In this document: positions 1 through 63,864 of the stretch, piece by piece
Numbering within the stretch: position 1 is the first letter of the stretch
Layout of the letters: every line of letters starts with the position of its first letter
Source: Escherichia coli
GTDB taxonomy: Bacteria > Pseudomonadota > Gammaproteobacteria > Enterobacterales > Enterobacteriaceae
Strand: one strand, 5' to 3'
Assembly: GCF_036507355.1 (NCBI RefSeq)
Contig: NZ_AP027877.1
DNA: 64,000 bases
The notes under the pieces: generated by a model
Told to the model about the DNA's origin: nothing
Databases searched by the model: none
What the model saw: only the letters and a program-made list of their open reading frames with translations
Position numbers and translations under genes: made by a program

Positions 1-886
1 GCGCCACCTTCATACATTCGTAGCTGTCGCACAACAAGGAACTTTGGGGCGCGCGGCTGAAACCCTTAATTTGAGTCAACCTGCGCTCTCTAAGACATTG
101 AATGAACTGGAGCAACTGACGGGCGCTCGCTTGTTTGAGCGTGGTCGTCAGGGGGCGCAACTTACCTTACCCGGCGAACAATTTTTAACGCATGCAGTCA
201 GAGTTCTTGACGCCATCAACACTGCTGGACAGTCGCTTAATCGTAAAGAAGGTCCTAATAATGATGTCGTCAGGGTTGGTGCACTACCTACTGCGGCACT
301 GGGGATATTACCTTCGGTTATAGGTCAGTTTCATCAGCAACAAAAAGAGACGACCTTGCAAGTTGCGACAATGAGTAACCCTATGATTCTGGCGGGTTTG
401 AAAACCGGGGAAATCGATATCGGCATTGGTCGGATGTCAGATCCTGAACTGATGACCGGGCTTAATTACGAACTGCTGTTTCTTGAATCGCTGAAGCTGG
501 TTGTCCGCCCTAATCACCCGCTACTTCAGGAGAACGTAACGCTAAGCCGGGTGCTGGAATGGCCGGTCGTTGTATCACCAGAAGGCACTGCGCCACGCCA
601 GCATTCAGATGCATTAGTACAGAGCCAGGGATGTAAAATTCCTTCGGGTTGTATCGAAACGCTGTCTGCTTCGCTATCTCGTCAACTTACGGTTGAATAC
701 GACTACGTGTGGTTTGTCCCTTCTGGCGCGGTAAAAGACGACCTGCGTCATGCCACGCTGGTGGCCCTGCCTGTTCCGGGACATGGTGCAGGCGAACCGA
801 TTGGAATACTGACCCGCGTAGATGCGACGTTCTCTTCTGGTTGCCAGTTGATGATTAACGCTATTCGAAAATCAATGCCGTTCTGA
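1..886 (+). CDS. ydcI: LysR-family transcriptional regulator, 5' end lies outside the window
   Basis: Reading frame is open from the window edge (…LRHLHTFVAVAQQGTLGRAAETLNLSQPALSKTL…, a LysR-type HTH) and continues into ORF 44..886; symbol from synteny next to trg. Confidence 0.7.
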   Translation, partial: RHLHTFVAVAQQGTLGRAAETLNLSQPALSKTLNELEQLTGARLFERGRQGAQLTLPGEQFLTHAVRVLDAINTAGQSLNRKEGPNNDVVRVGALPTAALGILPSVIGQFHQQQKETTLQVATMSNPMILAGLKTGEIDIGIGRMSDPELMTGLNYELLFLESLKLVVRPNHPLLQENVTLSRVLEWPVVVSPEGTAPRQHSDALVQSQGCKIPSGCIETLSASLSRQLTVEYDYVWFVPSGAVKDDLRHATLVALPVPGHGAGEPIGILTRVDATFSSGCQLMINAIRKSMPF

Positions 887-923
887 AAGGTGAAGGGATC
901 TGTCGATCCCTCCTTGAACATTT

Positions 924-2564
924 TCACACCGTAGCGAAACTAACTTGTTCACCCGCTCCGCGAGGTTCTGCCGACACAGAATGTTTGTTCAGACGGAATA
1001 CGTCCACCGCCTCAGTTAATCGTGCAGCCTGTTCTTCAAGGGACACCGCCGCTGCTGAGGCCTCTTCTACCAGAGAAGCATTCTGTTGCGTCACCTTATC
1101 CATTTCAGAAATCGCCTGGCTAACCTGAGTTATGCCTCTACTTTGCTCATCCGAGGCGGCGGCGATTTCCTGCATGATATGTGTGACACTCGCGACGGCA
1201 TCAACAATAGTGCTCATGGTTTTCCCGGCCGTTGCCACCTCATCCGATCCCAGGTCAATTAACCTGACTGATTCACTGATCAAGCCTTCAATCTCTTTCG
1301 CCGCCTGGGCGCTGCGGCTTGCGAGTGTCCGTACTTCGCTGGCGACAACGGCAAATCCACGCCCTTGCTCACCCGCTCGCGCAGCTTCAACGGCAGCATT
1401 CAGTGCCAGAATATTCGTCTGGAAAGCAATACTGTTGATGACGGCGGTGATCTCAGAAATTTTCTTCGAACTCATAGAGATAGCACCCATCGTTTTTACT
1501 ACCCCGGAAACCGTCTGCCCGCCATCGCTGGCTTTAATAGAAGCCTCTTGCGCCAGTTTGCTGGCATGATGCGCGTTATCCGCATTCTGTTTCACCGTCG
1601 CAGTGAGTTGCTCCATGCTGGCGGCAGTTTGTTCGATAGCCGCCGCTTGTTCTTCGGTGCGAGATGAAAGGTCCGCATTGCCAGCGGAAATTTCGCTGGT
1701 GCCACGATAAATCTCTTCCGCGCCCTGTCGAACAGTCCCTACTGTCATCCCCAGTGAATGCTGCATTTGCTGTAAATGACGACTTAAGCGACCGATTTCA
1801 TTACGACCCGCCGGTTCATCATTCATCGTCAGATCGCCACTGGCGATTTTTTCAATCCGTTGTGCGGCATGTTGCAGTGGACGAATGACGATCTGCCGTA
1901 GCACCATAAATGTTATCAGCGTCATGACCAGGGCAAGCACAAACGCGCCAATCATGAACATCCCACCCACGCGGGTGCGCTGATGGGCCAGTTCCGCCAG
2001 TTGGTTGGCTCTGGTGCTACGTATCTTAACGGCTTTGTTCAAAATATCGGTATAAGCATTATCCAGCGTTCGGATCTGCTCACTTTCATGATTGATAATT
2101 GCTTCAAACATACCATTTTTGGCATATTTCAACATAGGTTGCATACCCGTGATATAAGCCTGAAAGCGTTGATTTAATTCAGTGTCGAGGGCTTCATCAG
2201 CAGGTGTTTTCACCGGCCGATTCTGATAAGCACGATAACCTTGCTGCGACTGTTTAATCTCCGATTCGGCTTGCGCAATATTTCGCTTCATTGCTTCCAT
2301 TTCCGCAATACGACTCGCAGCCCCGGCCTGAATCATATTGATCCGGGCTGAACGCAAAAAATCTGAACTGTTCGCTAACCCGGTCCGAATCTCAATCTCC
2401 GCAGTAACATCACGCTGATCGCGATCGGCCTGCCAGAGGAAATAGCCAGCCAGGGCTGAACTTAATGCGAATAGAACTAAGATACCGCCTAGAATGCAGG
2501 CAAATAACGGAACCAACCTGATGTGATGCAAAAAACCTAATCGCTGTGAGGGAGTTGTATTCAT
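924..2564 (-). CDS. trg: Methyl-accepting chemotaxis protein (ribose/galactose sensor type)
   Basis: 546-aa ORF with two TM segments, HAMP region and the conserved MCP signalling/methylation region (…[28 protein letters not shown]…); synteny. Confidence 0.85.
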
Positions 2565-2904: not shown

Positions 2905-3112
<208 letters not shown>

Positions 3113-3116
3113 GGGC

Positions 3117-3140
3117 AAGCGCGGGGATTTTCCCCGCGCA
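3117..3140 (+). terminator. Stem-loop just downstream of hokB (gcgcgggga-ttt-tccccgcgc)
   Basis: Perfect GC-rich inverted repeat immediately after the hokB stop; no clear T-run, so function as terminator or mRNA fold element is uncertain. Confidence 0.4.
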
Positions 3141-3183
3141 TCTGACTAGCAGATTCATTTTCTCATGGCACCCCTTTTATACT

Positions 3184-5364: not shown

Positions 5365-6804
5365 TTAAGACTGTAAATAAACCACCTGGGTCTGCAGATA
5401 TTCATGCAGGCCATGTTTACCATCTGCGCCGCCAATACCGGATTTACGCCATCCGGCGTGGAAGCCTTGCATAGCTTCGAAGTTTTCACGATTGATGTAA
5501 GTTTCACCAAACTTCAGCCCTTTAATGGCTTTCATCGCGACGTTCAGATTTTGGGTATAGATTGATGAGGTCAGGCCGTAATCACTGTCATTAGCCATTG
5601 AGATAGCATCTTCCAGCGTGTCAAATGCGACTACCGGCAGAACCGGGCCAAAGGTTTCCTCATGCATAATCGACATTTCCTGGCGAACATCCAGCAGCAA
5701 TGTCGGCGGATAATAATATCCTTTCCCCTCTACCGCTTTGCCACCCAACGCCACTCTCGCCCCTTCTTCTACTGCGCGCGCCACTTTTTGCTCGACCCTT
5801 TCCAGCGCCGCGGCGTTAATCAACGGCCCCATCGCAATGTCGTTGCGTTCAGCGGGGTTACCAAATTGAACCGCCTGCATCGCTTCACCCAGCCGATTGA
5901 CGAACTGATCATAAATGCCTTTCTGTACATAAACACGTTCTGCACAGTTACACACTTGCCCACTATTAATGACGCGTGAATCAACGATGGCTTTGACTGC
6001 CAGTTCAAGATCGGCATCGTCCATTACGATAGCTGGTGCTTTACCCCCCAGTTCCAGGCACACTTTGGTGATGTTTTTCGCCGCAGTCGCCATGATCTTC
6101 TCACCTGCAGAGACGCTGCCTGTCATACTGACCATTGCGACCTTTGGGTTACCCGCCAGTTCTTGCCCAACGGTTTCACCACACCCCAGAACAAGGTTAA
6201 ACACGCCGCGCGGAAGGCCTATTTCATCGACGATTTTGGCGAATGCAATCGCATTGTTTGGCGTAAATTCACTGGGTTTAATGACAATGGTATTACCAGT
6301 CAAAAGAGCGGGAGCCATTTTGCGGGCAATGAGGAAGAACGGGAAGTTCCACGGCAGAATGCCGGTAGTCACACCAAGCGCACGTTTAAACAGAAGAATA
6401 TTTTCTCCTGGACGATCGCTTTGAATAATCTCGCCCTCGTAACGCCGTGCCCACTCCGCCATGTAATCGATATAGTCGGCAGTAAAAGCCACTTCGACTT
6501 CAGCCAGCTGCTGGATCTTGCCCCCTTCTTCAACAATCAGCGCACTGATTTCACTGGCGCGTTCGCGGATCCCGGCGGAGATTTTGCGCAACCAACTGGC
6601 GCGTTCAATAGCAGGCAACGCTTCCCATTCTGGTTGTGCACGTTCTGCTGCATCGATTGCCTTACGGGCATCCTCGGCCTGACCATCGGGTATGCGGGAA
6701 ATGACAGCCTCTGTAGCAGGGTTTACCACATCAATCCATGCGTCTCCACGCCAGGTAACAAACTGTCCATCGATATACATAGGATGTTGAACGGGTACTG
6801 ACAT
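5365..6804 (-). CDS. aldA: NAD-dependent aldehyde dehydrogenase (lactaldehyde dehydrogenase type)
   Basis: 479-aa ORF with ALDH family features (catalytic Cys region …GQVCNCAERVYVQ…); synteny. Confidence 0.9.
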   Translation of the reverse strand: MSVPVQHPMYIDGQFVTWRGDAWIDVVNPATEAVISRIPDGQAEDARKAIDAAERAQPEWEALPAIERASWLRKISAGIRERASEISALIVEEGGKIQQLAEVEVAFTADYIDYMAEWARRYEGEIIQSDRPGENILLFKRALGVTTGILPWNFPFFLIARKMAPALLTGNTIVIKPSEFTPNNAIAFAKIVDEIGLPRGVFNLVLGCGETVGQELAGNPKVAMVSMTGSVSAGEKIMATAAKNITKVCLELGGKAPAIVMDDADLELAVKAIVDSRVINSGQVCNCAERVYVQKGIYDQFVNRLGEAMQAVQFGNPAERNDIAMGPLINAAALERVEQKVARAVEEGARVALGGKAVEGKGYYYPPTLLLDVRQEMSIMHEETFGPVLPVVAFDTLEDAISMANDSDYGLTSSIYTQNLNVAMKAIKGLKFGETYINRENFEAMQGFHAGWRKSGIGGADGKHGLHEYLQTQVVYLQS

Positions 6805-18478: not shown

Positions 18479-19246
18479 GGTAATGACTCCAACTTATTGA
18501 TAGTGTTTTATGTTCAGATAATGCCCGATGACTTTGTCATGCAGCTCCACCGATTTTGAGAACGACAGCGACTTCCGTCCCAGCCGTGCCAGGTGCTGCC
18601 TCAGATTCAGGTTATGCCGCTCAATTCGCTGCGTATATCGCTTGCTGATTACGTGCAGCTTTCCCTTCAGGCGGGATTCATACAGCGGCCAGCCATCCGT
18701 CATCCATATCACCACGTCAAAGGGTGACAGCAGGCTCATAAGATGCCCCAGCGTCGCCATCGTGCGTTCACCGAATACGTGCGCAACAACCGTCTTCCGG
18801 AGCCTGTCATACGCGTAAAACAGCCAGCGCTGGCGCGATTTAGCCCCGACATAGCCCCACTGTTCGTCCATTTCCGCGCAGACGATGACGTCACTGCCCG
18901 GCTGTATGCGCGAGGTTACCGACTGCGGCCTGAGTTTTTTAAGTGACGTAAAATCGTGTTGAGGCCAACGCCCATAATGCGGGCTGTTGCCCGGCATCCA
19001 ACGCCATTCATGGCCATATCAATGATTTTCTGGTGCGTACCGGGTTGAGAAGCGGTGTAAGTGAACTGCAGTTGCCATGTTTTACGGCAGTGAGAGCAGA
19101 GATAGCGCTGATGTCCGGCGGTGCTTTTGCCGTTACGCACCACCCCGTCAGTAGCTGAACAGGAGGGACAGCTGATAGAAACAGAAGCCACTGGAGCACC
19201 TCAAAAACACCATCATACACTAAATCAGTAAGTTGGCAGCATCACC
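18479..19246 (-). mobile_element. insAB: IS1 (768 bp), copy 1, minus orientation; insA 18916..19191, insB' 18494..18997
   Basis: Both terminal inverted repeats recognised (GGTGATGCTGCCAACTTACTGAT… and …AAGTTGGAGTCATTACC); InsA/InsB ORFs; flanking 9-mers differ (attagatcg vs cacgtcggt), so no target-site duplication. Confidence 0.9.
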
Positions 19247-21479
19247 CACGTCGGTATCAGCCGTTTTGTTTGTGTTGCTAAATGCAATCGAACGGCTACT
19301 GTCAAGGTTGTGAACGTCATAACGCAATGCGTTATTCCAGTTCATGCCGTTGTCGAAGGACATCTGATGTTTCAGGCCAAAGAACTGGCTATAACCACCT
19401 GTGACGCCATTATCACCCGCTTTCTGCGCACCATCACCATCGAGACGAGCGATACCGTATTCCAGGCTCATGCTCTGGCTTTCGCTCAGGTCAACGGTTT
19501 TACGCAGTGCCAGCATGTCATACTCGGTGTTATTTCCGAGTTCCTCACGCGGGTCACCTTTCGCCACCACGTTAAAGGCCAGGCCATTGCCCACCTTCGG
19601 CGCGGCATCCGCCAGCATGCTGAAGCGGTTGCTTAACATACGCGCTTCACGGAATACCGTGGTCGCCTGGCTACCGCTCACCTGCTTCAGGGCGCTATTC
19701 AGTTCAGCAGTGGTGCCCACGTTCAGGCTGGTATACAGCTCGTTATTGGTGTAACCCGCATCCAGTGCCTTCGCCACATCGTTCACCGAAGCATCGGTCG
19801 CCACATCGGTGTAGGCGTTTTTGCTCATGATGACGTCAACGTTGCCGCTGGCATCGGTGCTGCCTTTGGCGGTCCATACCACGGACGTTGAGGTGATGGC
19901 ATCGGCGTCGGTCAGGTTGATGCCTTCCACCACGTTGTCGAAACTGACCGTGGTGTCTGCCGTACCGGCGGCGAAACCGGTGTTGATCCCGACACCATTC
20001 ATGCTGGCGTTGTTGACCTTCAGTTTACCGGCGCTGCCGTCAACGTTGGTACCGACGATATAGCCGTTGAGGTTGTTACTGCTGCCATCGCTACTACCGC
20101 TATCAGTCGTTTCACTGAAAGGTGAAGTGGTGTAAGTGTTTGGCATGTCCGGCAACGTGTAGTCGGTGTAATGCACTTCGGTATTGTTACCGCTGTTGCC
20201 GTTCACCCCTTCCACATTCACGCTGTCGCCCTGCTTAATCAACCCCGAACCAGTCACGCCGTCGGCAATCACCACCGTACCGTTGTTAACGATATGACCT
20301 TCTGTGCCCAGTACGCTGAACGCAAACGAGTCGTTAGCAAAAATATTGATCGTGCCGTTGTTCTCAATTACCGCATCGGCGGTGGCATTGGCATCCAGTT
20401 GCATACCAGTCAATCCGGTATCGGTGGTGCCTTCGGTACCGAGATTGATAACACCGTTGTTAACCAGCTGTGCGTTTTTATCGCCTTCCATCGCCACGGC
20501 GTTGTTGCCGCTGATGTTCATTACACCATCGTTGAGAGCAACATAGTTGTTGTGGGTGAATTTAACCGCGCTGGCGTTGTCTTTATCGAAGTTAATTACC
20601 CCGCCATCCTGGTTCCACAAGAAGGCATCGCTTTCTGTCGCACCGGCAGTACTTACCGCCACGGTGACTTTCGCATCCACCACGCCCTTGTTAATAAACT
20701 GGCTGGCGCCATCGTCATAGTGAATAGCGCCCGCACCTAATGCGGCATCCAGCGTCATTTCACCGGTGTTATATAACGTGGCGTTAGCATTGCTGCCCTG
20801 GAAGCGAATGGCGTTTTTGCTGTTATCAAGGATGAGTTTGCCGCTGTTGTTGAACGTTGACTTATCGTCAATATCCAGCGTCCCGGCATTGTTGTTTTCA
20901 TCCTGATAACCCATTTTCCAGGTACCCGCGTTATTCACTACCGCAGAGTTATAGAGAATCGCGCCTTTACGCGCCTCGCCGCCTGCAAGGTTATTGAATA
21001 CCGCATCGCCCTGAGCGTTAACGCGCGCCGACGCAATACCGCTGTTATTCACCGTACCATCGTGAAGTTGTAAAGTTGACAGGGAACCGGTGTTATTAAT
21101 TACCGCGTTGCTGTTTTTCTCAATTTTTACGACGTCATTAAGCGTTCCGTTGTTATTGAAGGTCCCTCCTTCCAAAGTCACCGTGTTCAATACACCTTCA
21201 TTGGTTAACGCACCGCCTGCATTCACGACGATGGCTGAGCTAATGGTTCCGCTCGACTCGTTAACCAGCGCACCATTTTCGAGTATCCTGATCGTTCCAT
21301 TTTTAACAGCACCCGCACTGGTGACATCCCCGTTGATAATCGCACCAGACGATAATAATACGGTCTCACCCGCAGAACTTAATACATCGCCATCATCATA
21401 CAAATCGGCGATATAATTATCCGTCGGATTATATTCATCGGCCCCCTGGCAAACCCCAAAGGTACAAATGGTGCCATAG
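19247..21479 (-). pseudogene. ydbA: Internal fragment of autotransporter adhesin passenger domain (ydbA-like)
   Basis: Asn/Gly/Thr-rich beta-helix-type repeats (…NNGTLN…VNNSG…). The apparent start (TTG) and last 8 codons (GDAANLLI*) are encoded by IS1 ends, so this is not an intact gene. Confidence 0.7.
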
Positions 21480-22247
21480 GGTGATGCTGCCAACTTACTG
21501 ATTTAGTGTATGATGGTGTTTTTGAGGTGCTCCAGTGGCTTCTGTTTCTATCAGCTGTCCCTCCTGTTCAGCTACTGACGGGGTGGTGCGTAACGGCAAA
21601 AGCACCGCCGGACATCAGCGCTATCTCTGCTCTCACTGCCGTAAAACATGGCAACTGCAGTTCACTTACACCGCTTCTCAACCCGGTACGCACCAGAAAA
21701 TCATTGATATGGCCATGAATGGCGTTGGATGCCGGGCAACAGCCCGCATTATGGGCGTTGGCCTCAACACGATTTTACGTCACTTAAAAAACTCAGGCCG
21801 CAGTCGGTAACCTCGCGCATACAGCCGGGCAGTGACGTCATCGTCTGCGCGGAAATGGACGAACAGTGGGGCTATGTCGGGGCTAAATCGCGCCAGCGCT
21901 GGCTGTTTTACGCGTATGACAGGCTCCGGAAGACGGTTGTTGCGCACGTATTCGGTGAACGCACGATGGCGACGCTGGGGCGTCTTATGAGCCTGCTGTC
22001 ACCCTTTGACGTGGTGATATGGATGACGGATGGCTGGCCGCTGTATGAATCCCGCCTGAAGGGAAAGCTGCACGTAATCAGCAAGCGATATACGCAGCGA
22101 ATTGAGCGGCATAACCTGAATCTGAGGCAGCACCTGGCACGGCTGGGACGGAAGTCGCTGTCGTTCTCAAAATCGGTGGAGCTGCATGACAAAGTCATCG
22201 GGCATTATCTGAACATAAAACACTATCAATAAGTTGGAGTCATTACC
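21480..22247 (+). mobile_element. insAB: IS1 (768 bp), copy 2, plus orientation; insA 21535..21810, insB' 21729..22232
   Basis: Terminal IRs at both ends; flanking 9-mers differ (gtgccatag vs ctggactta); inverted relative to copy 1. Confidence 0.9.
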
Positions 22248-38862: not shown

Positions 38863-40120
38863 TGATCCTACCCACGTAATATGGACACAGGCCTAAGCGA
38901 GGTTCTGGTTTTCAAATTGTTCCGGACTGAGGCCGCCACACCAACTGTGCCGCCGCCACCGATTGTAATCACATTCGATATAATTAAACACCGTTGCCCG
39001 CATTATTTCCCGGCTGATAAAGTGTTCTCCATGGATACATTCCACTTTCAGCGAATGAAAGAAGCTTTCCACGCAGGCATTATCGTAGCAGCAACCTTTT
39101 GCGCTCATACTTCCACGCAGATTATGCCGCTTCAGTTGCGCCTGATAATCTGCTGAACAGTACTGGCCTCCACGGTCCGTGTGAACGATAACGTTCCGGG
39201 GCCTCTTACGCCGCCACAGCGCCATCTGCAGGGCATCGCAGGCCAGTTGCGCCGTCATGCGTGGCGACATTGACCAGCCAATAACGGCACGTGACCACAG
39301 GTCAATGACCACTGCCAGATACAGCCAGCCTTCATCTGTACGTAAGTACGTGATGTCTCCTGCCCACTTCTGGTTCGGGCCACTGGCGTAAAAATCCTGC
39401 TCCAACAGATTTTCTGACACAGGCAGGCCGTGTGCGCGGTAGCTGACCGGGCTGAACTTCCGGGAGGCCTTTGCCCTCAGTCCCTGACGGCGCAGGCTTG
39501 CCGCCACGGTTTTTACGTTAAAGGGGTAACCCTGAGCACGCAGTTCATCCGTCAGGCGTGGGGCACCGTAACGCTGTTTTGACCGGGTAAAAGCCGCGAG
39601 GACAACGCTGTCGCAGTGTTGGCGGAACTGCTGACGCGTGCTTATCCTTGTCCGCCGCTGACACCACGTATACCAGCCGCTGCGGGCCACCCGGAGCACG
39701 CGGCACATTGCTTTGATGCTGAACTCAGCCTGATGTTTTTCAATAAAGACATACTTCATTTCAGGCGCTTCGCGAAGTATGTCGCGGCCTTTTGGAGGAT
39801 AGCCAGCTCTTCATCCCGTTCTGCCAGCTGGCGTTTGAGACGTGCAATCTCGGTAGACATCTCCAGTTCACGTTCAGAAGACGTCTGCTGATTTTGCTGT
39901 TTACTGCGCCAGTTGTAGAGCTGTGATTCATACAGGCTGAGTTCACGGGCTGCGGCAGTAACACCGATGCGTTCAGCAAGCTTCAGGGCTTCACTGCGAA
40001 ATTCAGGCGAATGCTGTTTACGGGGTTTTTTACTGGTTGATACTGTTTTTGTCATGTGAGTCACCTCTGACTGAGAGTTTACTCACTTAGCCGCGTGTCC
40101 ACTATTGCTGGGTAAGATCA
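38863..40120 (-). mobile_element. insEF: IS3 (1258 bp); insE/orfA 39756..40055, insF/orfB 38893..39759
   Basis: Terminal IRs TGATCCTACCCACGTAATATGGACAC… and …GTGTCCACTATTGCTGGGTAAGATCA; orfA/orfB transposase pair; flanking triplets differ, so no 3-bp target duplication. Confidence 0.9.
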
Positions 40121-40270
40121 CCGGACGCAACTGAACATCATCAGGACACGCAGCCGCTGGATGCTCAGTCACAGGTAAATTCTGTTGATGCGAAATATCA
40201 GGAACTGCGGGCAGAACTCCATGAAGCCCGGAAAAACATTCCATCAAAAAATCCTGTCGATGCCGATAAA

Positions 40271-41500
40271 TTGCTTGCTGCATCACGTGGTGAATTTGTT
40301 GACGGAATTAGCGACCCGAACGATCCGAAATGGGTAAAGGGGATCCAGACTCGCGATTGTGTGTACCAGAACCAGCCAGAAACGGAAAAAACCAGCCCAG
40401 ATATGAATCAACCTGAGCCAGTAGTGCAACAGGAACCGGAAATAGCCTGCAATGCCTGCGGCCAGACTGGCGGGGATAACTGCCCTGACTGTGGTGCGGT
40501 GATGGGCGACGCAACATACCAGGAAACATTCGATGAAGAGAGTCAGGTTGAAGCTAAGGAAAATGATCCGGAGGAAATGGAAGGCGCTGAACATCCGCAC
40601 AATGAGAATGCTGGCAGCGATCCGCATCGCGATTGCAGTGATGAAACTGGCGAAGTCGCAGATCCCGTAATCGTAGAAGACATAGAGCCAGGTATTTATT
40701 ACGGAATTTCGAATGAGAATTACCACGCGGGTCCCGGTATCAGTAAGTCTCAGCTCGATGACATTGCTGATACTCCGGCACTATATTTGTGGCGTAAAAA
40801 TGCCCCCGTGGACACCACAAAGACAAAAACGCTCGATTTAGGAACTGCTTTCCACTGCCGGGTACTTGAACCGGAAGAATTCAGTAACCGCTTTATCGTA
40901 GCACCTGAATTTAACCGCCGTACAAACGCCGGAAAAGAAGAAGAGAAAGCGTTTCTGATGGAATGCGCAAGCACAGGAAAAACGGTTATCACTGCGGAAG
41001 AAGGCCGGAAAATTGAACTCATGTATCAAAGCGTTATGGCTTTGCCGCTGGGGCAATGGCTTGTTGAAAGCGCCGGACACGCTGAATCATCAATTTACTG
41101 GGAAGATCCTGAAACAGGAATTTTGTGTCGGTGCCGTCCGGACAAAATTATCCCTGAATTTCACTGGATCATGGACGTGAAAACTACGGCGGATATTCAA
41201 CGATTCAAAACCGCTTATTACGACTACCGCTATCACGTTCAGGATGCATTCTACAGTGACGGTTATGAAGCACAGTTTGGAGTGCAGCCAACTTTCGTTT
41301 TTCTGGTTGCCAGCACAACTATTGAATGCGGACGTTATCCGGTTGAAATTTTCATGATGGGCGAAGAAGCAAAACTGGCAGGTCAACAGGAATATCACCG
41401 CAATCTGCGAACCCTGTCTGACTGCCTGAATACCGATGAATGGCCAGCTATTAAGACATTATCACTGCCCCGCTGGGCTAAGGAATATGCAAATGACTAA
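40271..41500 (+). CDS. recE: Exonuclease VIII (RecE) C-terminal portion, N-terminal part of gene missing
   Basis: 409-aa ORF ending …[12 protein letters not shown] just upstream of recT and beginning shortly after the IS3 end; contains the nuclease-domain region. Confidence 0.7.
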
Positions 41501-42302
41501 GCAACCACCAATCGCAAAAGCCGATCTGCAAAAAACTCAGGGAAACCGTGCACCAGCAGCAGTTAAAAATAGCGACGTGATTAGTTTTATTAACCAGCCA
41601 TCAATGAAAGAGCAACTGGCAGCAGCTCTTCCACGCCATATGACGGCTGAACGTATGATCCGTATCGCCACCACAGAAATTCGTAAAGTTCCGGCGTTAG
41701 GAAACTGTGACACTATGAGTTTTGTCAGTGCGATCGTACAGTGTTCACAGCTCGGACTTGAGCCAGGTAGCGCCCTCGGTCATGCATATTTACTGCCTTT
41801 TGGTAATAAAAACGAAAAGAGCGGTAAAAAGAACGTTCAGCTAATCATTGGCTATCGCGGCATGATTGATCTGGCTCGCCGTTCTGGTCAAATCGCCAGC
41901 CTGTCAGCCCGTGTTGTCCGTGAAGGTGACGAGTTTAGCTTCGAATTTGGCCTTGATGAAAAGTTAATACACCGCCCGGGAGAAAACGAAGATGCCCCGG
42001 TTACCCACGTCTATGCTGTCGCAAGACTGAAAGACGGAGGTACTCAGTTTGAAGTTATGACGCGCAAACAGATTGAGCTGGTGCGCAGCCTGAGTAAAGC
42101 TGGTAATAACGGGCCGTGGGTAACTCACTGGGAAGAAATGGCAAAGAAAACGGCTATTCGTCGCCTGTTCAAATATCTGCCCGTATCAATTGAGATCCAG
42201 CGTGCAGTATCAATGGATGAAAAGGAACCACTGACAATCGATCCTGCAGATTCCTCTGTATTAACCGGGGAATACAGTGTAATCGATAATTCAGAGGAAT
42301 AA
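41493..42302 (+). CDS. recT: Single-strand annealing recombinase RecT
   Basis: 269-aa ORF from the internal ATG ([29 protein letters not shown]…), overlapping the recE stop. Confidence 0.85.
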
Positions 42303-42346
42303 TTCAGCCTGGCGGTGTAATGCACCGCCAACTTGAAATATTTTTT

Positions 42347-43330
42347 ATGAGAAAAATTATGAGATATGACAATGTTGGTGATGCTGCCAACTTACTGATT
42401 TAGTGTATGATGGTGTTTTTGAGGTGCTCCAGTGGCTTCTGTTTCTATCAGCTGTCCCTCCTGTTCAGCTACTGACGGGGTGGTGCGTAACGGCAAAAGC
42501 ACCGCCGGACATCAGCGCTATCTCTGCTCTCACTGCCGTAAAACATGGCAACTGCAGTTCACTTACACCGCTTCTCAACCCGGTACGCACCAGAAAATCA
42601 TTGATATGGCCATGAATGGCGTTGGATGCCGGGCAACAGCCCGCATTATGGGCATTGGCCTCAACACGATTTTACGTCACTTAAAAAACTCAGGCCGCAG
42701 TCGGTAACCTCGCGCATACAGCCGGGCAGTGACGTCATCGTCTGCGCGGAAATGGACGAACAGTGGGGCTATGTCGGGGCTAAATCGCGCCAGCGCTGGC
42801 TGTTTTACGCGTATGACAGGCTCCGGAAGACGGTTGTTGCGCACGTATTCGGTGAACGCACGATGGCGACGCTGGGGCGTCTTATGAGCCTGCTGTCACC
42901 CTTTGACGTGGTGATATGGATGACGGATGGCTGGCCGCTGTATGAATCCCGCCTGAAGGGAAAGCTGCACGTAATCAGCAAGCGATATACGCAGCGAATT
43001 GAGCGGCATAACCTGAATCTGAGGCAGCACCTGGCACGGCTGGGACGGAAGTCGCTGTCGTTCTCAAAATCGGTGGAGCTGCATGACAAAGTCATCGGGC
43101 ATTATCTGAACATAAAACACTATCAATAAGTTGGAGTCATTACCGACAATGTTAAACCATGTCCATTTTGTGGTTGTCCATCAGTAACGGTGAAAGCCAT
43201 TTCAGGATATTACCGAGCGAAGTGTAACGGATGCGAATCCCGAACCGGTTATGGTGGAAGTGAAAAAGAAGCACTCGAAAGATGGAATAAACGAACCACT
43301 GGAAATAATAATGGAGGTGTTCATGTATAA
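42347..43330 (+). pseudogene. ralR: lar/ralR (restriction alleviation; type I TA toxin) interrupted by IS1
   Basis: 5' codons (MRKIMRYDNV) at 42347..42376 and the remainder (…KPCPFCGCPSVTVKAISGYYRAKCNGCESRTGYGGSEKEALERWNKRTTGNNNGGVHV*) at 43145..43330, separated by IS1 with a duplicated GACAATGTT. Confidence 0.7.
42377..43144 (+). mobile_element. insAB: IS1 (768 bp), copy 3, simple insertion; insA 42432..42707, insB' 42626..43129
   Basis: Terminal IRs present; perfect 9-bp target-site duplication GACAATGTT at 42368..42376 and 43145..43153. Confidence 0.9.
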
Positions 43331-43532
43331 AATTACCGCCACTATTGAAAAGGAAGGTGGCACTCCTACTAACTGGACAAGATATTCAAAATCTAAACTA
43401 ACGAAATCAGAATGCGAAAAAATGCTCTCAGGTAAAAAAGAAGCAGGCGTTTCCAGAGAGCAGAAAGTAAAACTGATAAATTTTAATTGCGAGAAACTTC
43501 AGTCCTCGAGAATTGCATTGTATTCAAATTAA
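43323..43532 (+). CDS. ydaC: Small prophage protein
   Basis: 69-aa ORF MYKITATIEKEGGTPTNWTRYSKSK… whose start overlaps the lar stop; symbol from position between lar and xisR. Confidence 0.6.
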   Translation: MYKITATIEKEGGTPTNWTRYSKSKLTKSECEKMLSGKKEAGVSREQKVKLINFNCEKLQSSRIALYSN

Positions 43533-43610
43533 AACTTCATAGCTGATTATTAATAATCAACATCGGGCGTCAATTTCAGTCTAACATTGGCGCCTGCCAG
43601 AGGTGATGCG

Positions 43611-43826
43611 ATGGCACAAGTAATCTTTAATGAAGAGTGGATGGTTGAATACGGCCTGATGCTTCGCACTGGTCTGGGGGCCAGACAAATTGAAGCATAC
43701 CGCCAGAACTGTTGGGTGGAGGGCTTCCACTTCAAACGAGTATCTCCTTTAGGTAAGCCAGACAGCAAACGAGGGATTATCTGGTACAACTATCCAAAGA
43801 TAAATCAGTTTATCAAAGACTCATGA
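43611..43826 (+). CDS. xisR: Prophage excisionase
   Basis: 71-aa ORF from the internal ATG ([17 protein letters not shown]…) immediately upstream of the integrase. Confidence 0.7.
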
Positions 43827-43827
43827 T

Positions 43828-45063
43828 ATGTCTAAATTACCAACAGGTGTCGAGATTAGAGGTAGATACATTCGCATCTGGTTCATGTTTCGAGGAAAAC
43901 GATGTCGGGAAACATTAAAAGGCTGGGAGATTACAAACAGTAATATTAAAAAGGCCGGAAATTTAAGAGCGCTGATAGTTCATGAAATAAACTCCGGTGA
44001 ATTTGAGTATTTAAGACGTTTTCCCCAGTCCAGCACTGGGGCAAAAATGGTGACAACGAGAGTCATAAAAACGTTCGGAGAGCTTTGTGATATCTGGACA
44101 AAAATTAAAGAGACAGAGTTAACAACAAACACAATGAAGAAAACGAAATCACAATTAAAAACACTCAGAATAATAATTTGTGAAAGTACCCCGATATCAC
44201 ATATTCGTTATAGCGATATCTTAAACTACCGGAATGAACTGCTGCATGGAGAAACGCTTTACCTGGATAATCCAAGATCCAACAAAAAAGGAAGAACCGT
44301 GCGCACAGTTGATAACTATATCGCCCTGCTCTGTTCGCTGTTGCGTTTTGCGTATCAGTCGGGATTTATATCAACCAAACCATTTGAAGGAGTAAAAAAA
44401 TTACAGCGAAACAGAATAAAGCCTGATCCGTTATCTAAAACAGAATTCAATGCATTAATGGAAAGTGAAAAAGGACAGAGCCAGAACTTGTGGAAATTTG
44501 CCGTTTACTCAGGACTTCGTCACGGGGAACTGGCAGCTCTGGCGTGGGAGGATGTGGATCTCGAAAAGGGAATAGTGAATGTCAGAAGAAACCTGACGAT
44601 ACTTGATATGTTCGGTCCCCCAAAAACAAATGCCGGGATCCGAACAGTAACACTACTGCAGCCTGCTCTTGAAGCACTGAAGGAGCAATACAAACTGACC
44701 GGGCATCATCGCAAAAGCGAAATCACCTTTTATCATCGGGAGTACGGCAGAACCGAAAAGCAAAAACTGCATTTTGTTTTCATGCCCAGGGTGTGTAACG
44801 GAAAACAAAAACCTTATTACTCGGTAAGCAGTTTGGGGGCAAGGTGGAATGCAGCAGTAAAACGTGCTGGTATTCGCCGCCGTAATCCGTACCATACGCG
44901 GCATACTTTTGCCTGCTGGCTGTTGACGGCAGGAGCGAACCCGGCATTTATAGCCAGCCAAATGGGGCATGAAACTGCGCAGATGGTGTATGAAATTTAC
45001 GGTATGTGGATTGATGACATGAACGACGAACAGATAGCCATGTTGAATGCGCGGTTATCGTAG
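43828..45063 (+). CDS. intR: Prophage tyrosine integrase
   Basis: 411-aa ORF with the C-terminal catalytic tyrosine-recombinase region (…HTRHTFACWLLTAGANP…QMGHET…MVYEIY…). Confidence 0.85.
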   Translation: MSKLPTGVEIRGRYIRIWFMFRGKRCRETLKGWEITNSNIKKAGNLRALIVHEINSGEFEYLRRFPQSSTGAKMVTTRVIKTFGELCDIWTKIKETELTTNTMKKTKSQLKTLRIIICESTPISHIRYSDILNYRNELLHGETLYLDNPRSNKKGRTVRTVDNYIALLCSLLRFAYQSGFISTKPFEGVKKLQRNRIKPDPLSKTEFNALMESEKGQSQNLWKFAVYSGLRHGELAALAWEDVDLEKGIVNVRRNLTILDMFGPPKTNAGIRTVTLLQPALEALKEQYKLTGHHRKSEITFYHREYGRTEKQKLHFVFMPRVCNGKQKPYYSVSSLGARWNAAVKRAGIRRRNPYHTRHTFACWLLTAGANPAFIASQMGHETAQMVYEIYGMWIDDMNDEQIAMLNARLS

Positions 45064-51278: not shown

Positions 51279-52792
51279 TCAGGATGATTTATTCATAGCA
51301 GGAACCAACAAAAATGCGATAAATAACAGACCACTGATTAGCAGAAAGGTATCCGAAAATGCCATAGTTTGCGCCTCCCTCAGCATCAATTGACTCAATA
51401 ATTTGGTTGAAGCCAGTATTTCCGATGTCTGGTCACTTCCACTGCGATTAAAAAATAAAGCACTTCTGGAAATGAAGTCATTCACCGTATGGGGAACAGA
51501 AACCATTTTTTCACCCATTCTCGAAAAATGAAAATTAGTTCGATTATTGAGAATAGAGCCACACAGGGCAATACCGATCGCGCCCCCAAGATTACGTGTT
51601 AAATTAAATACACCAGAGGCTAACTTCAGCCGTTCTTTTGGAATTCCCCCCAGCGTTAATGTTACGATGGGGGCCATCGCAAACTGCTGCGAAATCCCTC
51701 TAATTGCCTGTGGAAACAGTAACTCCTGCCATCCCCATTCGTGGGTTATAGGGGTAAAAAGATACATTGAAAACACAAATCCGCCCAGCCCCGCCATCAA
51801 CAGCCATCGCAGATTTATTTTTTTACTTAACCAGAAGTAAAAGGGAACAGAAAATAACTGGAAAATACCTGTTGTGCAAACGGCAAAACCTATCTCTTCG
51901 GCATTTAATCCGCGAATCTGCCCCAAAAACACAGGTATTAAATATACAGTAGAGAATATCCCAACTCCTCCAGAAAAAGAAAAAAACATCCCAGAGTGAA
52001 ATTTTTATCCTTAAAAGCATGAAGATCCATTATCGGATTGGATATTGTAAGTGTACGCGCAGCAAATAAAATAAAACTCACCAATGCCAGAACTGATGTC
52101 AGCAAAATAGTATTATCATCCAGCCATCCCCAGCGCGCTCCTTCTTCAAGGGTATATTCCAGACATCCCAGTGTCATGGCCAACAGGATAATACTCGGAT
52201 AATCAGCAACTTTCAGTAAAGAGAGATCAGGTTTATCAAAATTAACCAGAAAAGGAATACTCAAAACTAAATATATGCCAGGTAATATATTGATATAAAA
52301 TAGCCATCGCCAGTCGAGGTTATCAGTGATCCAGCCCCCCAGAGTTGGCCCTAGCGTCGGTGACAGTGAGGCCAGCGCACTGACTACCGCAGCAGCCAAC
52401 CCCAACTCTTTACCCTGGTAATAAATAAACGCCGTCGTGAAAACTAAAGGGATCATGGATGCGCCAGCAGCTCCCTGTAAAGCACGAAACAAAATCATGA
52501 TCTGAATATTCCATGCAAGTCCACACGCGATACTCATTAAAGTAAATATTCCCGCGGATAGAGTAAAAAGCCAACGAGTGGAAAATACCCGTGACAGCCA
52601 CCCAGAGAGCGGAATAACAATAATCTCAGCAATTAAATAGCTGGTCTGAAGCCAGGCCATTTCGTCTTTACCTGCGGACAGACCACCACCTATTTCATTT
52701 AGGGATGACGATACAATTTGAATATCAAGCTGAGCAATAAATAATCCCATACACATACTGGCGAAAGCAATATGTTTACGCATAGACATCAT
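51279..52792 (-). pseudogene. EmrB/QacA-family MFS efflux transporter, disrupted by a frameshift
   Basis: Two ORFs in different frames (51938..52792 N-terminal half, 51279..51989 C-terminal half) overlapping by about 50 nt; both multi-TM MFS-like. Confidence 0.65.
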
Positions 52793-53820
52793 CTCTCATC
52801 AACACTGACGGTGACGGACAGTCCCGGGCGAAGAAGTTGCTTTAATTCCTTTGCGTCGTCAAATGCAATCCGTACCGGGACACGCTGAACAATTTTGGTG
52901 AAATTGCCAGTGGCATTTTCTATCGGAATCAAGCTGAAACTGGCTCCTGTCGCTGGGGAAAGGCTTTCAATGTGACCGTGAAACACTTCCCCTTTGAGAA
53001 TATCAGCACGGATCTCAGCCTTCATTCCTGGCTTCATTCCCGCTATTTGGTTTTCTTTATAATTTGCATCAACCCACAACTCACTGACTGGTACTAGTGA
53101 AACTAACGATGTGCCGCCTTCCACCCAACTGCCTGTATGGGCGCTGCGGTTTGCGACAATGCCATCAATCGGCGCACGAACAAGGGTATATTCCAGATCC
53201 AGTAGTGCCTGAGTCAAAGCGGCCTGAACTTCTTCGATACTCGCACGTACGTTTTCTTCCTGAGCAGATAAAACTGCCAGCCGTTGCTTCTCCACCAGGA
53301 AATCGTTCGCGGCTTTGCGCTCCTTTGCTGCGACCTGCTGGTAGTCAAACCTGGCGTTATCAATAATTTGTTGCGATATTGCCGCTGATTGTGCGAGTTT
53401 TTCATAACGTTCAGTATCTCGCAGGCGCTTTTGCTCCTCATGTTTTACTGCCTGCCATGTTTCACTGGCACTTTGAATTATCGACTGCTGCATCGCAATA
53501 GTGGCTTGAATGCTTTCGAGATTGGCTTTGCTACTTTTTATTTTTGCCTCAAGCCTGGCGACATTTGCACGATAATCCCGATCATCGAGACGCAGGATAA
53601 TATCGCCTTTTTTTACGCTCTGATTATCGCGCACCTCTATAGCAGAAATATAACCAGAAACTTTACTTGCCACCGTGGTGATATTACCACCAATGTAAGC
53701 ATCATCCGTCGTCTGTATAAATCTTCCTTTGCTTACCCACCAGATAAAAAAGACAACGCCAGTCAAAAGAATACCGATCGCTACCACCCCAATAAGCTGT
53801 TTTTTAGAAATTATCATCAC
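52789..53820 (-). CDS. HlyD/EmrA-family membrane fusion protein
   Basis: 343-aa ORF with N-terminal TM anchor, long coiled-coil region and a C-terminal beta domain; stop overlaps the MFS start. Confidence 0.75.
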   Translation of the reverse strand: MMIISKKQLIGVVAIGILLTGVVFFIWWVSKGRFIQTTDDAYIGGNITTVASKVSGYISAIEVRDNQSVKKGDIILRLDDRDYRANVARLEAKIKSSKANLESIQATIAMQQSIIQSASETWQAVKHEEQKRLRDTERYEKLAQSAAISQQIIDNARFDYQQVAAKERKAANDFLVEKQRLAVLSAQEENVRASIEEVQAALTQALLDLEYTLVRAPIDGIVANRSAHTGSWVEGGTSLVSLVPVSELWVDANYKENQIAGMKPGMKAEIRADILKGEVFHGHIESLSPATGASFSLIPIENATGNFTKIVQRVPVRIAFDDAKELKQLLRPGLSVTVSVDER

Positions 53821-53913: not shown

Positions 53914-54729
53914 ATGACAATTACACTGCAACCCAAAGCATCACCAGGGCATCACATTATCGGACTGGATTCGGAACATCTGAATGGAGGTACAGTTCCC
54001 TGGCATAAACATCTCTATGCCCAGTTGCTTTACCCGGCTGAAGGAGTCGTTCGTGTATGGGCTGGAGAAAGCGTCTGGCTAGTCCATGCCAGCAGCGCGC
54101 TTTGGCTGCCCCCACAAATGCCGCATAAGTTTGTTGCGACAGGCAACGTACTTTTAAAAACCGTACTGGTTTCAGAAGCGGAAAGTGAAACGCTGGGAAC
54201 AGTTTGCTTCATGACGGGTATTTCACCCCTGTTAAGGGAATTACTAATTGCAATTAACCAACTTCCACCGTCGCAAAGTACCACAGATAAACAACAGTTA
54301 CGTTTTTCAGCCCTCGAGACACTGATACTTCAGGAAATAAAAATGGGGGTGAAAATGTCACTTGAACTCCCTTGGCCAAATGATGAGCGGCTACAGCAGC
54401 TTTGTGAGAATTTGCTAAACAACCAAGGGTATCTGCCAACACTGGATAATCTAGCGGATAAAATTAACGTCAGTAGCCGTACACTCATGCGCTTATTTGT
54501 TAAAGAGACGGGATTAACATTTCGCCACTGGGTTCAGCAAATGCACGTTATATCTGCAGTGACGCTTCTTGATGATGGATATTCGTTGACCAAAATTGCC
54601 CATCGTCTGGGCTATGCCTCAGCTGAATCGTTCGGCAATATGTTTAAGCGTCGAACGGGTTACTCGCCCGGTAAATTTACTCGTCGATTAACGATGCATG
54701 ATTATGCAATCACAAGACAAATGATTTAA
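53914..54729 (+). CDS. AraC-family transcriptional regulator (cupin N-domain plus HTH), divergent from the efflux genes
   Basis: 271-aa ORF with a C-terminal AraC-type HTH (…LTKIAHRLGYASAESFGNMFKRRTGYSPGKF…). Confidence 0.75.
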   Translation: MTITLQPKASPGHHIIGLDSEHLNGGTVPWHKHLYAQLLYPAEGVVRVWAGESVWLVHASSALWLPPQMPHKFVATGNVLLKTVLVSEAESETLGTVCFMTGISPLLRELLIAINQLPPSQSTTDKQQLRFSALETLILQEIKMGVKMSLELPWPNDERLQQLCENLLNNQGYLPTLDNLADKINVSSRTLMRLFVKETGLTFRHWVQQMHVISAVTLLDDGYSLTKIAHRLGYASAESFGNMFKRRTGYSPGKFTRRLTMHDYAITRQMI

Positions 54730-55272: not shown

Positions 55273-55788
55273 ATGCTGAGATTACTTGAAGAAAAAATTG
55301 CCACGCCACTGGGTCCACTGTGGGTGATTTGCGATGAGCAATTTCGCCTGCGGGCGGTTGAATGGGAAGAGTACAGCGAACGCATGGTGCAGCTGCTGGA
55401 CATCCATTATCGCAAAGAAGGCTATGAGCGCATTTCTGCCACCAACCCAGGTGGTTTAAGCGACAAGCTTCGTGAATATTTTGCCGGTAATCTTAGCATT
55501 ATTGATACGCTTCCCACTGCCACGGGGGGGACGCCATTTCAGCGCGAAGTCTGGAAAACACTGCGCACTATCCCCTGCGGGCAGGTAATGCATTACGGCC
55601 AACTGGCTGAACAATTGGGCCGCCCTGGCGCGGCGCGTGCCGTTGGTGCGGCAAACGGATCGAATCCCATCAGCATCGTCGTACCTTGCCATCGGGTTAT
55701 TGGCCGAAACGGCACCATGACCGGATATGCAGGCGGAGTTCAGCGAAAAGAGTGGTTATTGCGCCACGAAGGTTATCTTTTGCTGTAA
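55273..55788 (+). CDS. ogt: Methylated-DNA--protein-cysteine methyltransferase
   Basis: 171-aa ORF with the active site PCHRV. Confidence 0.9.
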
Positions 55789-61083: not shown

Positions 61084-61419
61084 AAGTTTCCCTCTAACCG
61101 ACATTAAAATTGATGCGTAATTATTTGTTTCGCCTTAAAGAAATGCAAACAACTTCCATCAAAAAAGTGACACAGGAAGCATAAAATGTTTTATGTATCA
61201 ATATATTAAATCAGATTTAGTGTAAATAATAGACGCCAAAATGCGGCAAAGCACATAGAACACCGAACACTACGTTCGGGCTTCGCACGTTCAAACCAGT
61301 TTTCGGTATCATAATCAGCATCTGTCGCCATTGTACGAAGAATAAAAAATAACCAAAACGTTGAAAGGAACTGAGAATACGTTAAGAGAAGAATTAAATT
61401 AATGTATCAGCAAGTAGTG

Positions 61420-62319: not shown

Positions 62320-62424
62320 TCAGTATCTCCATACAATCTATTAATCATTTAAATGATAGGTCTAATCATGATTTTGGGTCTAATCAACTTAATGATCAAT
62401 ATCTATAGTGATATCACCAACCGT

Positions 62425-63653
62425 TGAATCGCCACGGGTTTAACAGACACCTCAGAGTCATTTAAGATGGCTTAAAGAGAGGTGCCCATGAGCGGTAAGC
62501 GTTATCCCGAAGAGTTTAAAATTGAAGCAGTCAAACAGGTTGTTGATCGCGGTTATTCTGTTGCCAGCGTTGCAACACGTCTCGATATCACCACCCACAG
62601 CCTTTACGCCTGGATAAAGAAGTACGGTCCGGATTCTTCCGCTAATAAAGAACAGTCAGATGCTCAGGCCGAGATCCGCCGTCTCCAGAAAGAGCTGAAG
62701 CGGGTTACCGACGAACGGGACATATTAAAAAAAGCCGCGGCGTACTTCGCAAAGCTGTCCGACTGAGGTACGCCTTTATCCGTGACAACACCTGTTGCTG
62801 GCCTGTTCGCCTGCTCTGTCGGGTGCTGGATGTTCATCCCAGTGGTTTTTACGCCTGGCTTCAGCAGCCGCATTCACAACGCCATCAGGCAGACCTGAGG
62901 CTGACAGGGCAGATTAAACAGTTCTGGCTGGAATCGGGATGCGTCTATGGTTATCGCAAAATCCATCTGGATCTGCGGGACAGCGGGCAACAGTGCGGAG
63001 TGAACAGAGTCTGGCGACTGATGAAACGTGTCGGGATAAAGGCTCAGGTCGGATACCGGAGCCCGCGGGCACGTAAAGGCGAGGCCAGTATCGTGTCGCC
63101 CAACAGGCTCCAGCGACAGTTCAATCCGGATGCTCCGGATAAGCGTTGGGTAACGGACATAACCTACATCAGGACCCACGAAGGCTGGCTGTATCTTGCC
63201 GTGGTTGTTGATCTGTTCTCACGCAAAATTATCGGCTGGTCCATGCAATCCCGGATGACAAAGGACATTGTCCTGAACGCACTGCTGATGGCTGTATGGC
63301 GCCGTAATCCCCAAAAACAGGTGCTGGTTCATTCGGATCAGGGCAGTCAGTACACAAGCCATGAGTGGCAGTCGTTCCTGAAATCACACGGCCTGGATGG
63401 CAGCATGAGCCGTCGCGGTAACTGCCATGATAATGCGGTTGCAGAAAGCTTTTTCCAGTTGTTGAAACGCGAACGGATAAAGAAAAAGATCTACGGAACG
63501 CGGGAAGAAGCCCGCAGCGATATTTTTGATTACATCGAAATGTTTTATAACAGTAAGCGTCGGCATGGTTCCAGCGATCAGATGTCACCGACAGAATATG
63601 AAAACCAGTATTATCAACGGCTCGGAAGTGTCTAGATTATCCGTGGCGATTCA
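62425..63653 (+). mobile_element. IS3-family insertion sequence (about 1229 bp), exact IS name not resolved; orfA 62482..62766, orfB 62823..63635
   Basis: Terminal inverted repeats TGAATCGCCACGG … CCGTGGCGATTCA; orfA (HTH) and orfB (DDE transposase) in -1 frame relation with an A7G slippery site at 62726..62733. Confidence 0.8.
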
Positions 63654-63864
63654 TACAATTCTTCGCCCTGCCTGGCTGACGGATGAAGATATTATTGATT
63701 ATGAGCTTACCTCACGCAATGAACCATTCAAAGGTACGATCGTATCACGTAAGAGTGTCGCAGCATTAATTACAGATATCATCGATAAACCTGAGAAACA
63801 CATTGGTGAGAATATAGGCATCAATCAACCCGGGACTGATGGCGATAAGCCATTCTTCATGTAA
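63654..63864 (+). pseudogene. 3' fragment of an unidentified gene truncated by the IS3-family element
   Basis: Open frame (…WLTDEDIIDYELTSRNEPFKGTIVSRKSVAALITDIIDKPEKHIGENIGINQPGTDGDKPFFM*) begins at the IS boundary with no start codon of its own. Confidence 0.4.

Follow-up and report, generated by a model that had tools for sequence, protein, structure and literature searches.

An ISEhe3-type insertion sequence at the joint of a 2.33-kb deletion beside pgrR in Escherichia coli

The window analyzed here is a 64-kb stretch of Escherichia coli DNA that holds, near its right end, the gene of the LysR-type regulator PgrR, most of the intergenic region next to it, a complete insertion sequence (IS) and the 3′ remnant of an oxidoreductase gene (Table 1). 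The exact PgrR protein of the window is found in many E. coli genomes, in which it is annotated as PgrR, and MppA, YnaI, UspE, Fnr and Ogt are likewise common alleles, with look-ups of PgrR and MppA leading to ordinary E. coli loci. For pgrR itself, 62382-62353 resembles a promoter, solely on the basis of agreement with the consensus. In the mppA-pgrR spacer, ~61248-61322 corresponds to a stretch that carries the annotation of a partial QueH (epoxyqueuosine reductase) pseudogene fragment in E. coli EC1515, our uninterrupted reference locus (L001, positions 1899-1973).

Table 1. Features at the pgrR locus and insertion sequences in the 64-kb window.
Feature	Position	Strand	Basis or remark
IS1	18479-19247		
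IS1	21479-22247		
IS3 (orfB 38893-39759, orfA 39756-40064)	~38870-40130	-	OrfA sequence
IS1	42377-43144		
pgrR (ycjZ), intact LysR-type regulator, 299 aa	61420..62319	-	HTH_1 + LysR_substrate
Surviving part (105 of 137 bp) of the spacer between pgrR and ycjY	62320..62424	.	Alignment with L001 2971-3075
ISEhe3-type IS3-family insertion sequence, complete, 1229 bp, TG...CA ends	62425..63653	+	Listed best matches and boundaries of 9 other copies
Left terminal inverted repeat TGAATCGCCACGG	62425..62437	+	Imperfect extension to ~62457
orfA, 92 aa, helix-turn-helix protein	62488..62766	+	PF01527 HTH_Tnp_1, E = 4e-20
A7G slippery run, in-frame heptamer A AAA AAA at 62727-62733	62727..62734	+	Sequence and orfA frame
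orfB, -1 frame, HTH_21 and rve DDE domain	62733..63635	+	PF00665 rve, E = 2.5e-33
Candidate frameshift stimulator, predicted 11-bp hairpin	62739..62774	+	RNA fold
Right terminal inverted repeat CCGTGGCGATTCA	63641..63653	+	Imperfect extension from ~63621
3′ remnant of ymjC-type SDR/NAD(P)H-binding oxidoreductase gene, residues 144-212 and stop	63654..63864	+	PF13460, EC1515 identity

The boundaries of the element are fixed because full-length copies elsewhere share the same ends next to unrelated DNA: nine further full-length copies (L025-L033), whose flanks are unrelated, all begin with TGAATC and finish with GATTCA. The terminal inverted repeats are perfect over 13 of 13 positions and imperfect beyond, with ~25 of the first 33 positions matching, and the ends and repeats that a preliminary, sequence-only reading of the locus had assigned are the ones we retain. 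Its assignment of the element to the IS3 family was also confirmed, both by the rve domain of OrfB and by a match of the transposase to the IS3-family equivalog NF033516 transpos_IS3 (NCBIfam) at 360.6 bits, for which the cutoff is 160 bits; length and TG...CA ends are within the range of the family (1.2-1.5 kb, 5′-TG...CA-3′). Its transposase genes point away from pgrR. Matches that cover at least 80% of its length occur in 178 E. coli genomes and in 702 plasmid records, the latter from Escherichia, Klebsiella, Enterobacter, Citrobacter, Salmonella, Pantoea and other hosts, and among the best matches listed, from E. coli chromosomes and enterobacterial plasmids, all span 1..1229 with 98.9-99.9% identity.

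The two transposase genes have the arrangement expected for such an element. As had been proposed, orfA and orfB are joined by an A7G -1 frameshift motif: orfB is open throughout 62733-63635 and A AAA AAA G lies in the overlap, where the orfA-frame codons read TTA AAA AAA GCC (A7 at 62727-62733, G at 62734). A -1 slip at this run is predicted to give a fused OrfAB of 382 aa, and the DDE residues of OrfB, D...D(35)E, can be read in WVTDITY, HSDQGS and AVAESF. RNA folding predicts a hairpin 5 nt 3′ of the heptamer (z-score of the region -0.63), with the orfA stop, UGA (62764-62766), inside its 3′ arm, which makes it a candidate stimulator of the frameshift. A slippery run followed by a hairpin is the usual layout in the IS3 family, and with the predicted hairpin the element of the window would have it too. 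The element is intact and probably still active, the indirect evidence for activity being its open frames and the repeated occurrence of its OrfB allele on one contig (see below).

An exact-protein look-up of the fused OrfAB gave no match. The OrfB of the window differs from the common allele at three residues, and this exact allele is recorded only in a 1258-bp Logan contig, with a left flank different from that of the window, and on one 4.64-Mb contig labelled E. coli, where at least four protein accessions represent it. From the presence of at least four accessions on one contig it follows that the allele has multiplied in at least one lineage and, consequently, that recombination in this lineage could take place between several identical copies.

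Which named IS does the element represent? Its OrfA sequence is identical to a UniRef entry named “ISEhe3 transposase A.” ISEhe3 was originally described from Pantoea agglomerans, on plasmid pPATH, and is listed in ISfinder as a member of the IS3 family, IS51 group, with direct repeats of 3-4 bp (quoted in PMC10425158). Proteins annotated as ISEhe3 orfA occur in Shigella flexneri genomes (92 aa) and in S. sonnei (71 aa) (PMC4924310), and pT5282-Ct2 (MF344574) has been reported as an ISEhe3 carrier. The element of the window is like ISEhe3 in its TG ends, two ORFs, DDE transposase and the 3-4 bp duplications of its sibling copies, and unlike it in that the window copy has no target duplication. 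The element may be either ISEhe3 itself or an isoform with a name of its own, the criterion for the name ISEhe3 being DNA identity of 95% or more to AF327445, the reference in ISfinder. Because the DNA comparison was with the ISEhe3-labelled copy of Shigella phage SfIV, which is only 89.4% identical, we refer to the element as ISEhe3-type.

The triplets that adjoin the element are CGT on the left and TAC on the right. We found no direct repeat of 3-5 bp at its ends, including when both ends were shifted together by up to 3 bp, and the observation in the sequence-only reading that the triplets differ and that a 3-bp duplication is absent was therefore correct. Among the nine sibling copies, four have a duplication of 3-4 bp (TCT, GTA, TAA and GAAA) and five do not, three of these five being in one multi-copy genome (ERZ27273564). 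Since sibling copies duplicate 3-4 bp, absence of a duplication at the window copy signals a secondary event, not that the element falls outside the IS3 family. With five of nine siblings duplication-less, secondary rearrangement at ISEhe3-type elements seems to be common.

The nature of the event at this locus became apparent by alignment with the uninterrupted EC1515 locus, a comparison that the sequence-only reading had recommended. There, pgrR (minus strand) is followed by a 137-bp spacer, a ycjY-type alpha/beta hydrolase gene (306 aa), a second alpha/beta hydrolase gene (310 aa), an SDR oxidoreductase gene (212 aa) and mpaA, and the same order, with pgrR divergent from hydrolase, hydrolase, SDR and mpaA, is seen in 12 further loci. 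The left flank of the element ends at position 3075 of L001 and the right flank restarts at 5406, with an ambiguity of at most 1 bp per joint, and so 2330 bp (L001 3076-5405) are missing from the window: 32 bp of spacer immediately ahead of the ycjY ATG, both hydrolase genes in their entirety and, from the SDR gene, the first 428 nt. The left junction reads GATATCACCAACCGT followed directly by TGAATCGCCACGG, and the right junction CCGTGGCGATTCA followed directly by TACAATTCTTCGCC. Both flanks are present in 13 of the reference loci that we fetched, and in all 13 they are 2329-2331 bp apart. The flanks are thus apart in relatives, their joint coincides precisely with the IS ends and a duplication is lacking, the features of an IS-associated deletion. 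Since the flanks are 2.33 kb apart in uninterrupted loci, ycjY and the second hydrolase gene have almost certainly been deleted at the IS joint, together with 428 nt from the SDR gene.

These findings bear out the earlier view that the IS is linked to a deletion and alter it in two respects. The extent had been underestimated, as two whole genes and two-thirds of a third are gone, and the fragment to the right of the element does not derive from the gene divergent from pgrR: ycjY is entirely lost and the fragment is the 3′ end of the third gene, that for the SDR. The downstream frame is indeed headless. It occupies 63655-63864, has 69 codons and a stop, lacks a start or promoter of its own, is identical at 69 of 69 residues to positions 144-212 of the 212-aa EC1515 SDR oxidoreductase, and matches PF13460 NAD_binding_10 at the C-terminal end only (profile positions 139-184 of 184). 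A 112-codon open frame, 63526-63864, starts within the right end of the IS (TTG at 63526, with in-frame ATG and GTG codons later) and runs into the remnant. A chimeric peptide from this frame is conceivable; exact-protein look-ups of the IS/SDR products of five start variants matched no database gene call.

An alternative that needs to be considered is that nothing was deleted by or at the element, and that the IS simply inserted beside a headless frame that was already a pseudogene next to pgrR, or that its duplication lies hidden under other end assignments. Decay of the locus in IS-free form does exist, as in E. coli DETEC-E480; the right flank is missing from ~46% of E. coli genomes, and loci such as L013 and L021 are shortened by other deletions. 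Against this, none of 5426 complete E. coli genomes has the flanks of the window adjacent to each other, the joint of DETEC-E480 is a different one (501 vs. 211 nt of the SDR gene retained), and entry of an IS into a pre-existing joint should have left a duplication, of which there is no trace as a 3-5 bp repeat at shifted ends, the true ends being fixed by the other copies. We consider simple insertion very improbable, and the variant of it that depends on a different end assignment was rejected on the last of these grounds. Similarly, the combination that the sequence-only reading had named as contrary to its own claim, a 3-bp duplication at other ends together with an intact upstream portion of the gene, was looked for, and neither is present.

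Neither IS junction occurs in any of 5426 complete E. coli genomes, and exact patterns of the right and left junctions had no matches in genome-representative and metagenome contig collections; the event therefore looks private to a lineage that is absent from these collections. Among RefSeq E. coli, flank identity reached 99.5% at best. The two flanks adjacent without an IS were found in 0 of the 5426 genomes, from which we conclude that no common allele carried the deletion before the IS arrived, and a deletion older than the IS was rejected. The right flank of the window is present in 2942 of the 5426 genomes and absent from ~46%, and fetched loci such as L013 and L021 have a shorter, differently deleted arrangement.

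Two other strains have changes at the same place. E. coli MB51 (NZ_CP073946.1, L002 5184-7635) carries an independent ISEhe3-type copy 33 bp further into the pgrR-ycjY spacer and in the same orientation. The MB51 copy is split by an IS30, has no duplication, and ~50 bp are missing at its right (IRR) end (L001 ~3109-3160), including the start of ycjY. In E. coli DETEC-E480 (NZ_CP116181.1, L034 2596-3104) there is a deletion without any IS, which has brought pgrR almost directly against a 5′-truncated SDR gene of which 501 of 639 nt are kept, compared to 211 nt in the window, and the joint is elsewhere. By its end points, the DETEC-E480 deletion arose separately, although it took away the same two hydrolase genes.

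Might the joint have been made by the assembly rather than by the cell? A 1.2-kb perfect repeat is the type that short-read assemblers collapse, and two IS copies 2.33 kb apart could have been merged into one with the segment between them dropped. However, three IS1 copies and one IS3 stand in the window each between unique flanks, as would be expected if the assembly were finished or made from long reads, and the only named record with the OrfB allele is a single 4.64-Mb contig. We give an assembly artefact hardly any credence.

The major question arising from the joint is “By what route was the 2330-bp segment removed?” The most likely route, to which we assign about an even chance, is recombination between two direct copies of the IS. 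The element would first have inserted once in the pgrR-ycjY spacer, at the target CGT; a second copy would then have inserted in the same orientation in the SDR gene, at the target TAC; and homologous recombination between these direct copies would have removed one copy together with the intervening DNA, the outcome being a single IS with unmatched flanks. At the left site, the expected precursor would have the IS followed by CGTTAAAACG and an intact ycjY, and at the right site it would have an IS in the SDR gene preceded by GGAATATAC. Recombination between two copies is made plausible by the multiple occurrence of the OrfB allele on one contig, and there is precedent for it, as IS150-adjacent deletions of the rbs operon have been attributed to recombination between two identical copies (PMC4173774). 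Arguing against it, neither a presumed precursor, with a single insertion or with both and a duplication at each, nor the same junction was found among the 5426 E. coli genomes or in the contig scans, so that the route is inferred and not observed, and there is no second copy of the ISEhe3-type element within the 64-kb window.

The other route would require only one copy. One IS end, in a tandem IS dimer or in a one-ended event, would have joined to a site 2.33 kb distant in the same DNA molecule, deleting the interval without making a duplication. Active IRR-IRL junctions of IS3-family dimers have been reported to yield adjacent deletions. The single-copy route is consistent with the absence of a duplication, with the clean joint at the IS end (ambiguity at most 1 bp) and with the five of nine siblings that have no duplication. 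It also has a parallel in the independent MB51 copy, which has in the same spacer a deletion of ~50 bp at the same IRR side, a loss that is awkward for the two-copy model and fits an adjacent deletion made by transposase better. However, standard IS3-family transposition, which is copy-out/paste-in, keeps the donor flanks untouched; three of the five duplication-less siblings are in one multi-copy genome, where recombination is equally possible; and the best-documented adjacent deletions of the family, those of IS150 at rbs, are ascribed to two-copy recombination (PMC4173774). We regard the single-copy route as possible rather than likely, and the data cannot separate it from the two-copy route.

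A further idea that follows from the MB51 copy is that the ISEhe3-type element prefers the pgrR-ycjY spacer as a target and tends to cause deletions that begin at its right end (IRR) and differ in length. It arises because the window and MB51 copies are 33 bp apart and in the same orientation, and because both have no duplication and both have lost DNA on the IRR side (2330 bp and ~50 bp, respectively). If true, it would mean transposase-driven, one-sided deletion, an activity not commonly attributed to copy-out/paste-in elements of the IS3 family, and we think it unlikely.

The ycjY/ycjZ spacer is a binding site of PgrR, and ycjY-ymjD-ymjC-mpaA belongs to the PgrR regulon (PMC5934670). What survives at the locus is pgrR and 105 bp of the spacer, and we infer that the promoter-proximal part of this PgrR-controlled operon has been lost, its first three genes being gone or dead, that the SDR remnant is a dead pseudogene and that mpaA, which should start ~290 bp past the remnant, beyond the end of the window, has been cut off by the IS from the PgrR-regulated promoter. 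In terms of annotation, ycjY, the adjacent hydrolase gene and the ymjC-type gene are to be recorded as deleted or pseudogenised, the IS is to be named as ISEhe3-type, and mpaA is to be marked as detached from the PgrR-controlled promoter. Taken with the other arrangements, namely the genomes without the right flank, the IS-free DETEC-E480, MB51 with an IS and a loss of ~50 bp, and the window with an IS and a loss of 2.33 kb, the sequences indicate that the accessory ycjY-ymjD-ymjC-mpaA locus decays repeatedly and independently in E. coli. The importance of the case beyond annotation is little: a known type of IS marks the place where an IS-associated deletion has removed part of a dispensable operon, and this is genome decay of an ordinary kind and known biology.

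The element is the fifth IS copy in the window, as had been counted from the sequence, the others being three IS1 and one IS3, and several of these also adjoin altered genes. The IS3 copy (~38870-40130) lies directly against a 5′-truncated recE-like gene. From there the region 40271-45063 contains the recE-like PDDEXK gene (40271-41500), recT (41436-42302), an IS1 (42377-43144) and a phage integrase gene (43828-45063); it looks like a Rac-type prophage remnant, and the arrangement suggests that the prophage interior was lost between IS1-bounded ends. The IS1 pair at 18479-19247 and 21479-22247 is inverted and brackets a 2.2-kb piece of a BigA/ydbA-like gene, the 757-codon frame of which enters both IS1 copies, and so the gene is cut at both ends in a composite-transposon-like structure. 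Accessory content differs as well: beside ogt (55273-55788) are genes for an AraC-family regulator (53914-54729) and an HlyD-type membrane-fusion protein (52789-53820), at the position where the fetched E. coli loci carry abgT-abgB.

The closest parallel to the deletion is that of the IS150/rbs deletions in the E. coli long-term evolution experiment (PMC4173774). In both, an IS3-family element lies beside an operon, the deletion starts from the exact IS end, and the genes removed are promoter-proximal and presumably dispensable. The difference is that at rbs both precursor and products have been seen experimentally and recurrently, whereas the window shows the end product alone and in one genome. 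On a broader scale, the locus is one more case of IS-bounded gene loss in the IS-rich chromosomes of Escherichia and Shigella. The IS-driven pseudogenisation and genome reduction of Shigella and enteroinvasive E. coli is the obvious comparison, as the window is likewise dense in IS (five in 64 kb) and has other IS-bounded losses, those at the Rac recE-recT/IS1/integrase region and at the ydbA-like gene cut by two IS1 copies, although the only named record with the OrfB allele of the window is labelled Escherichia coli.
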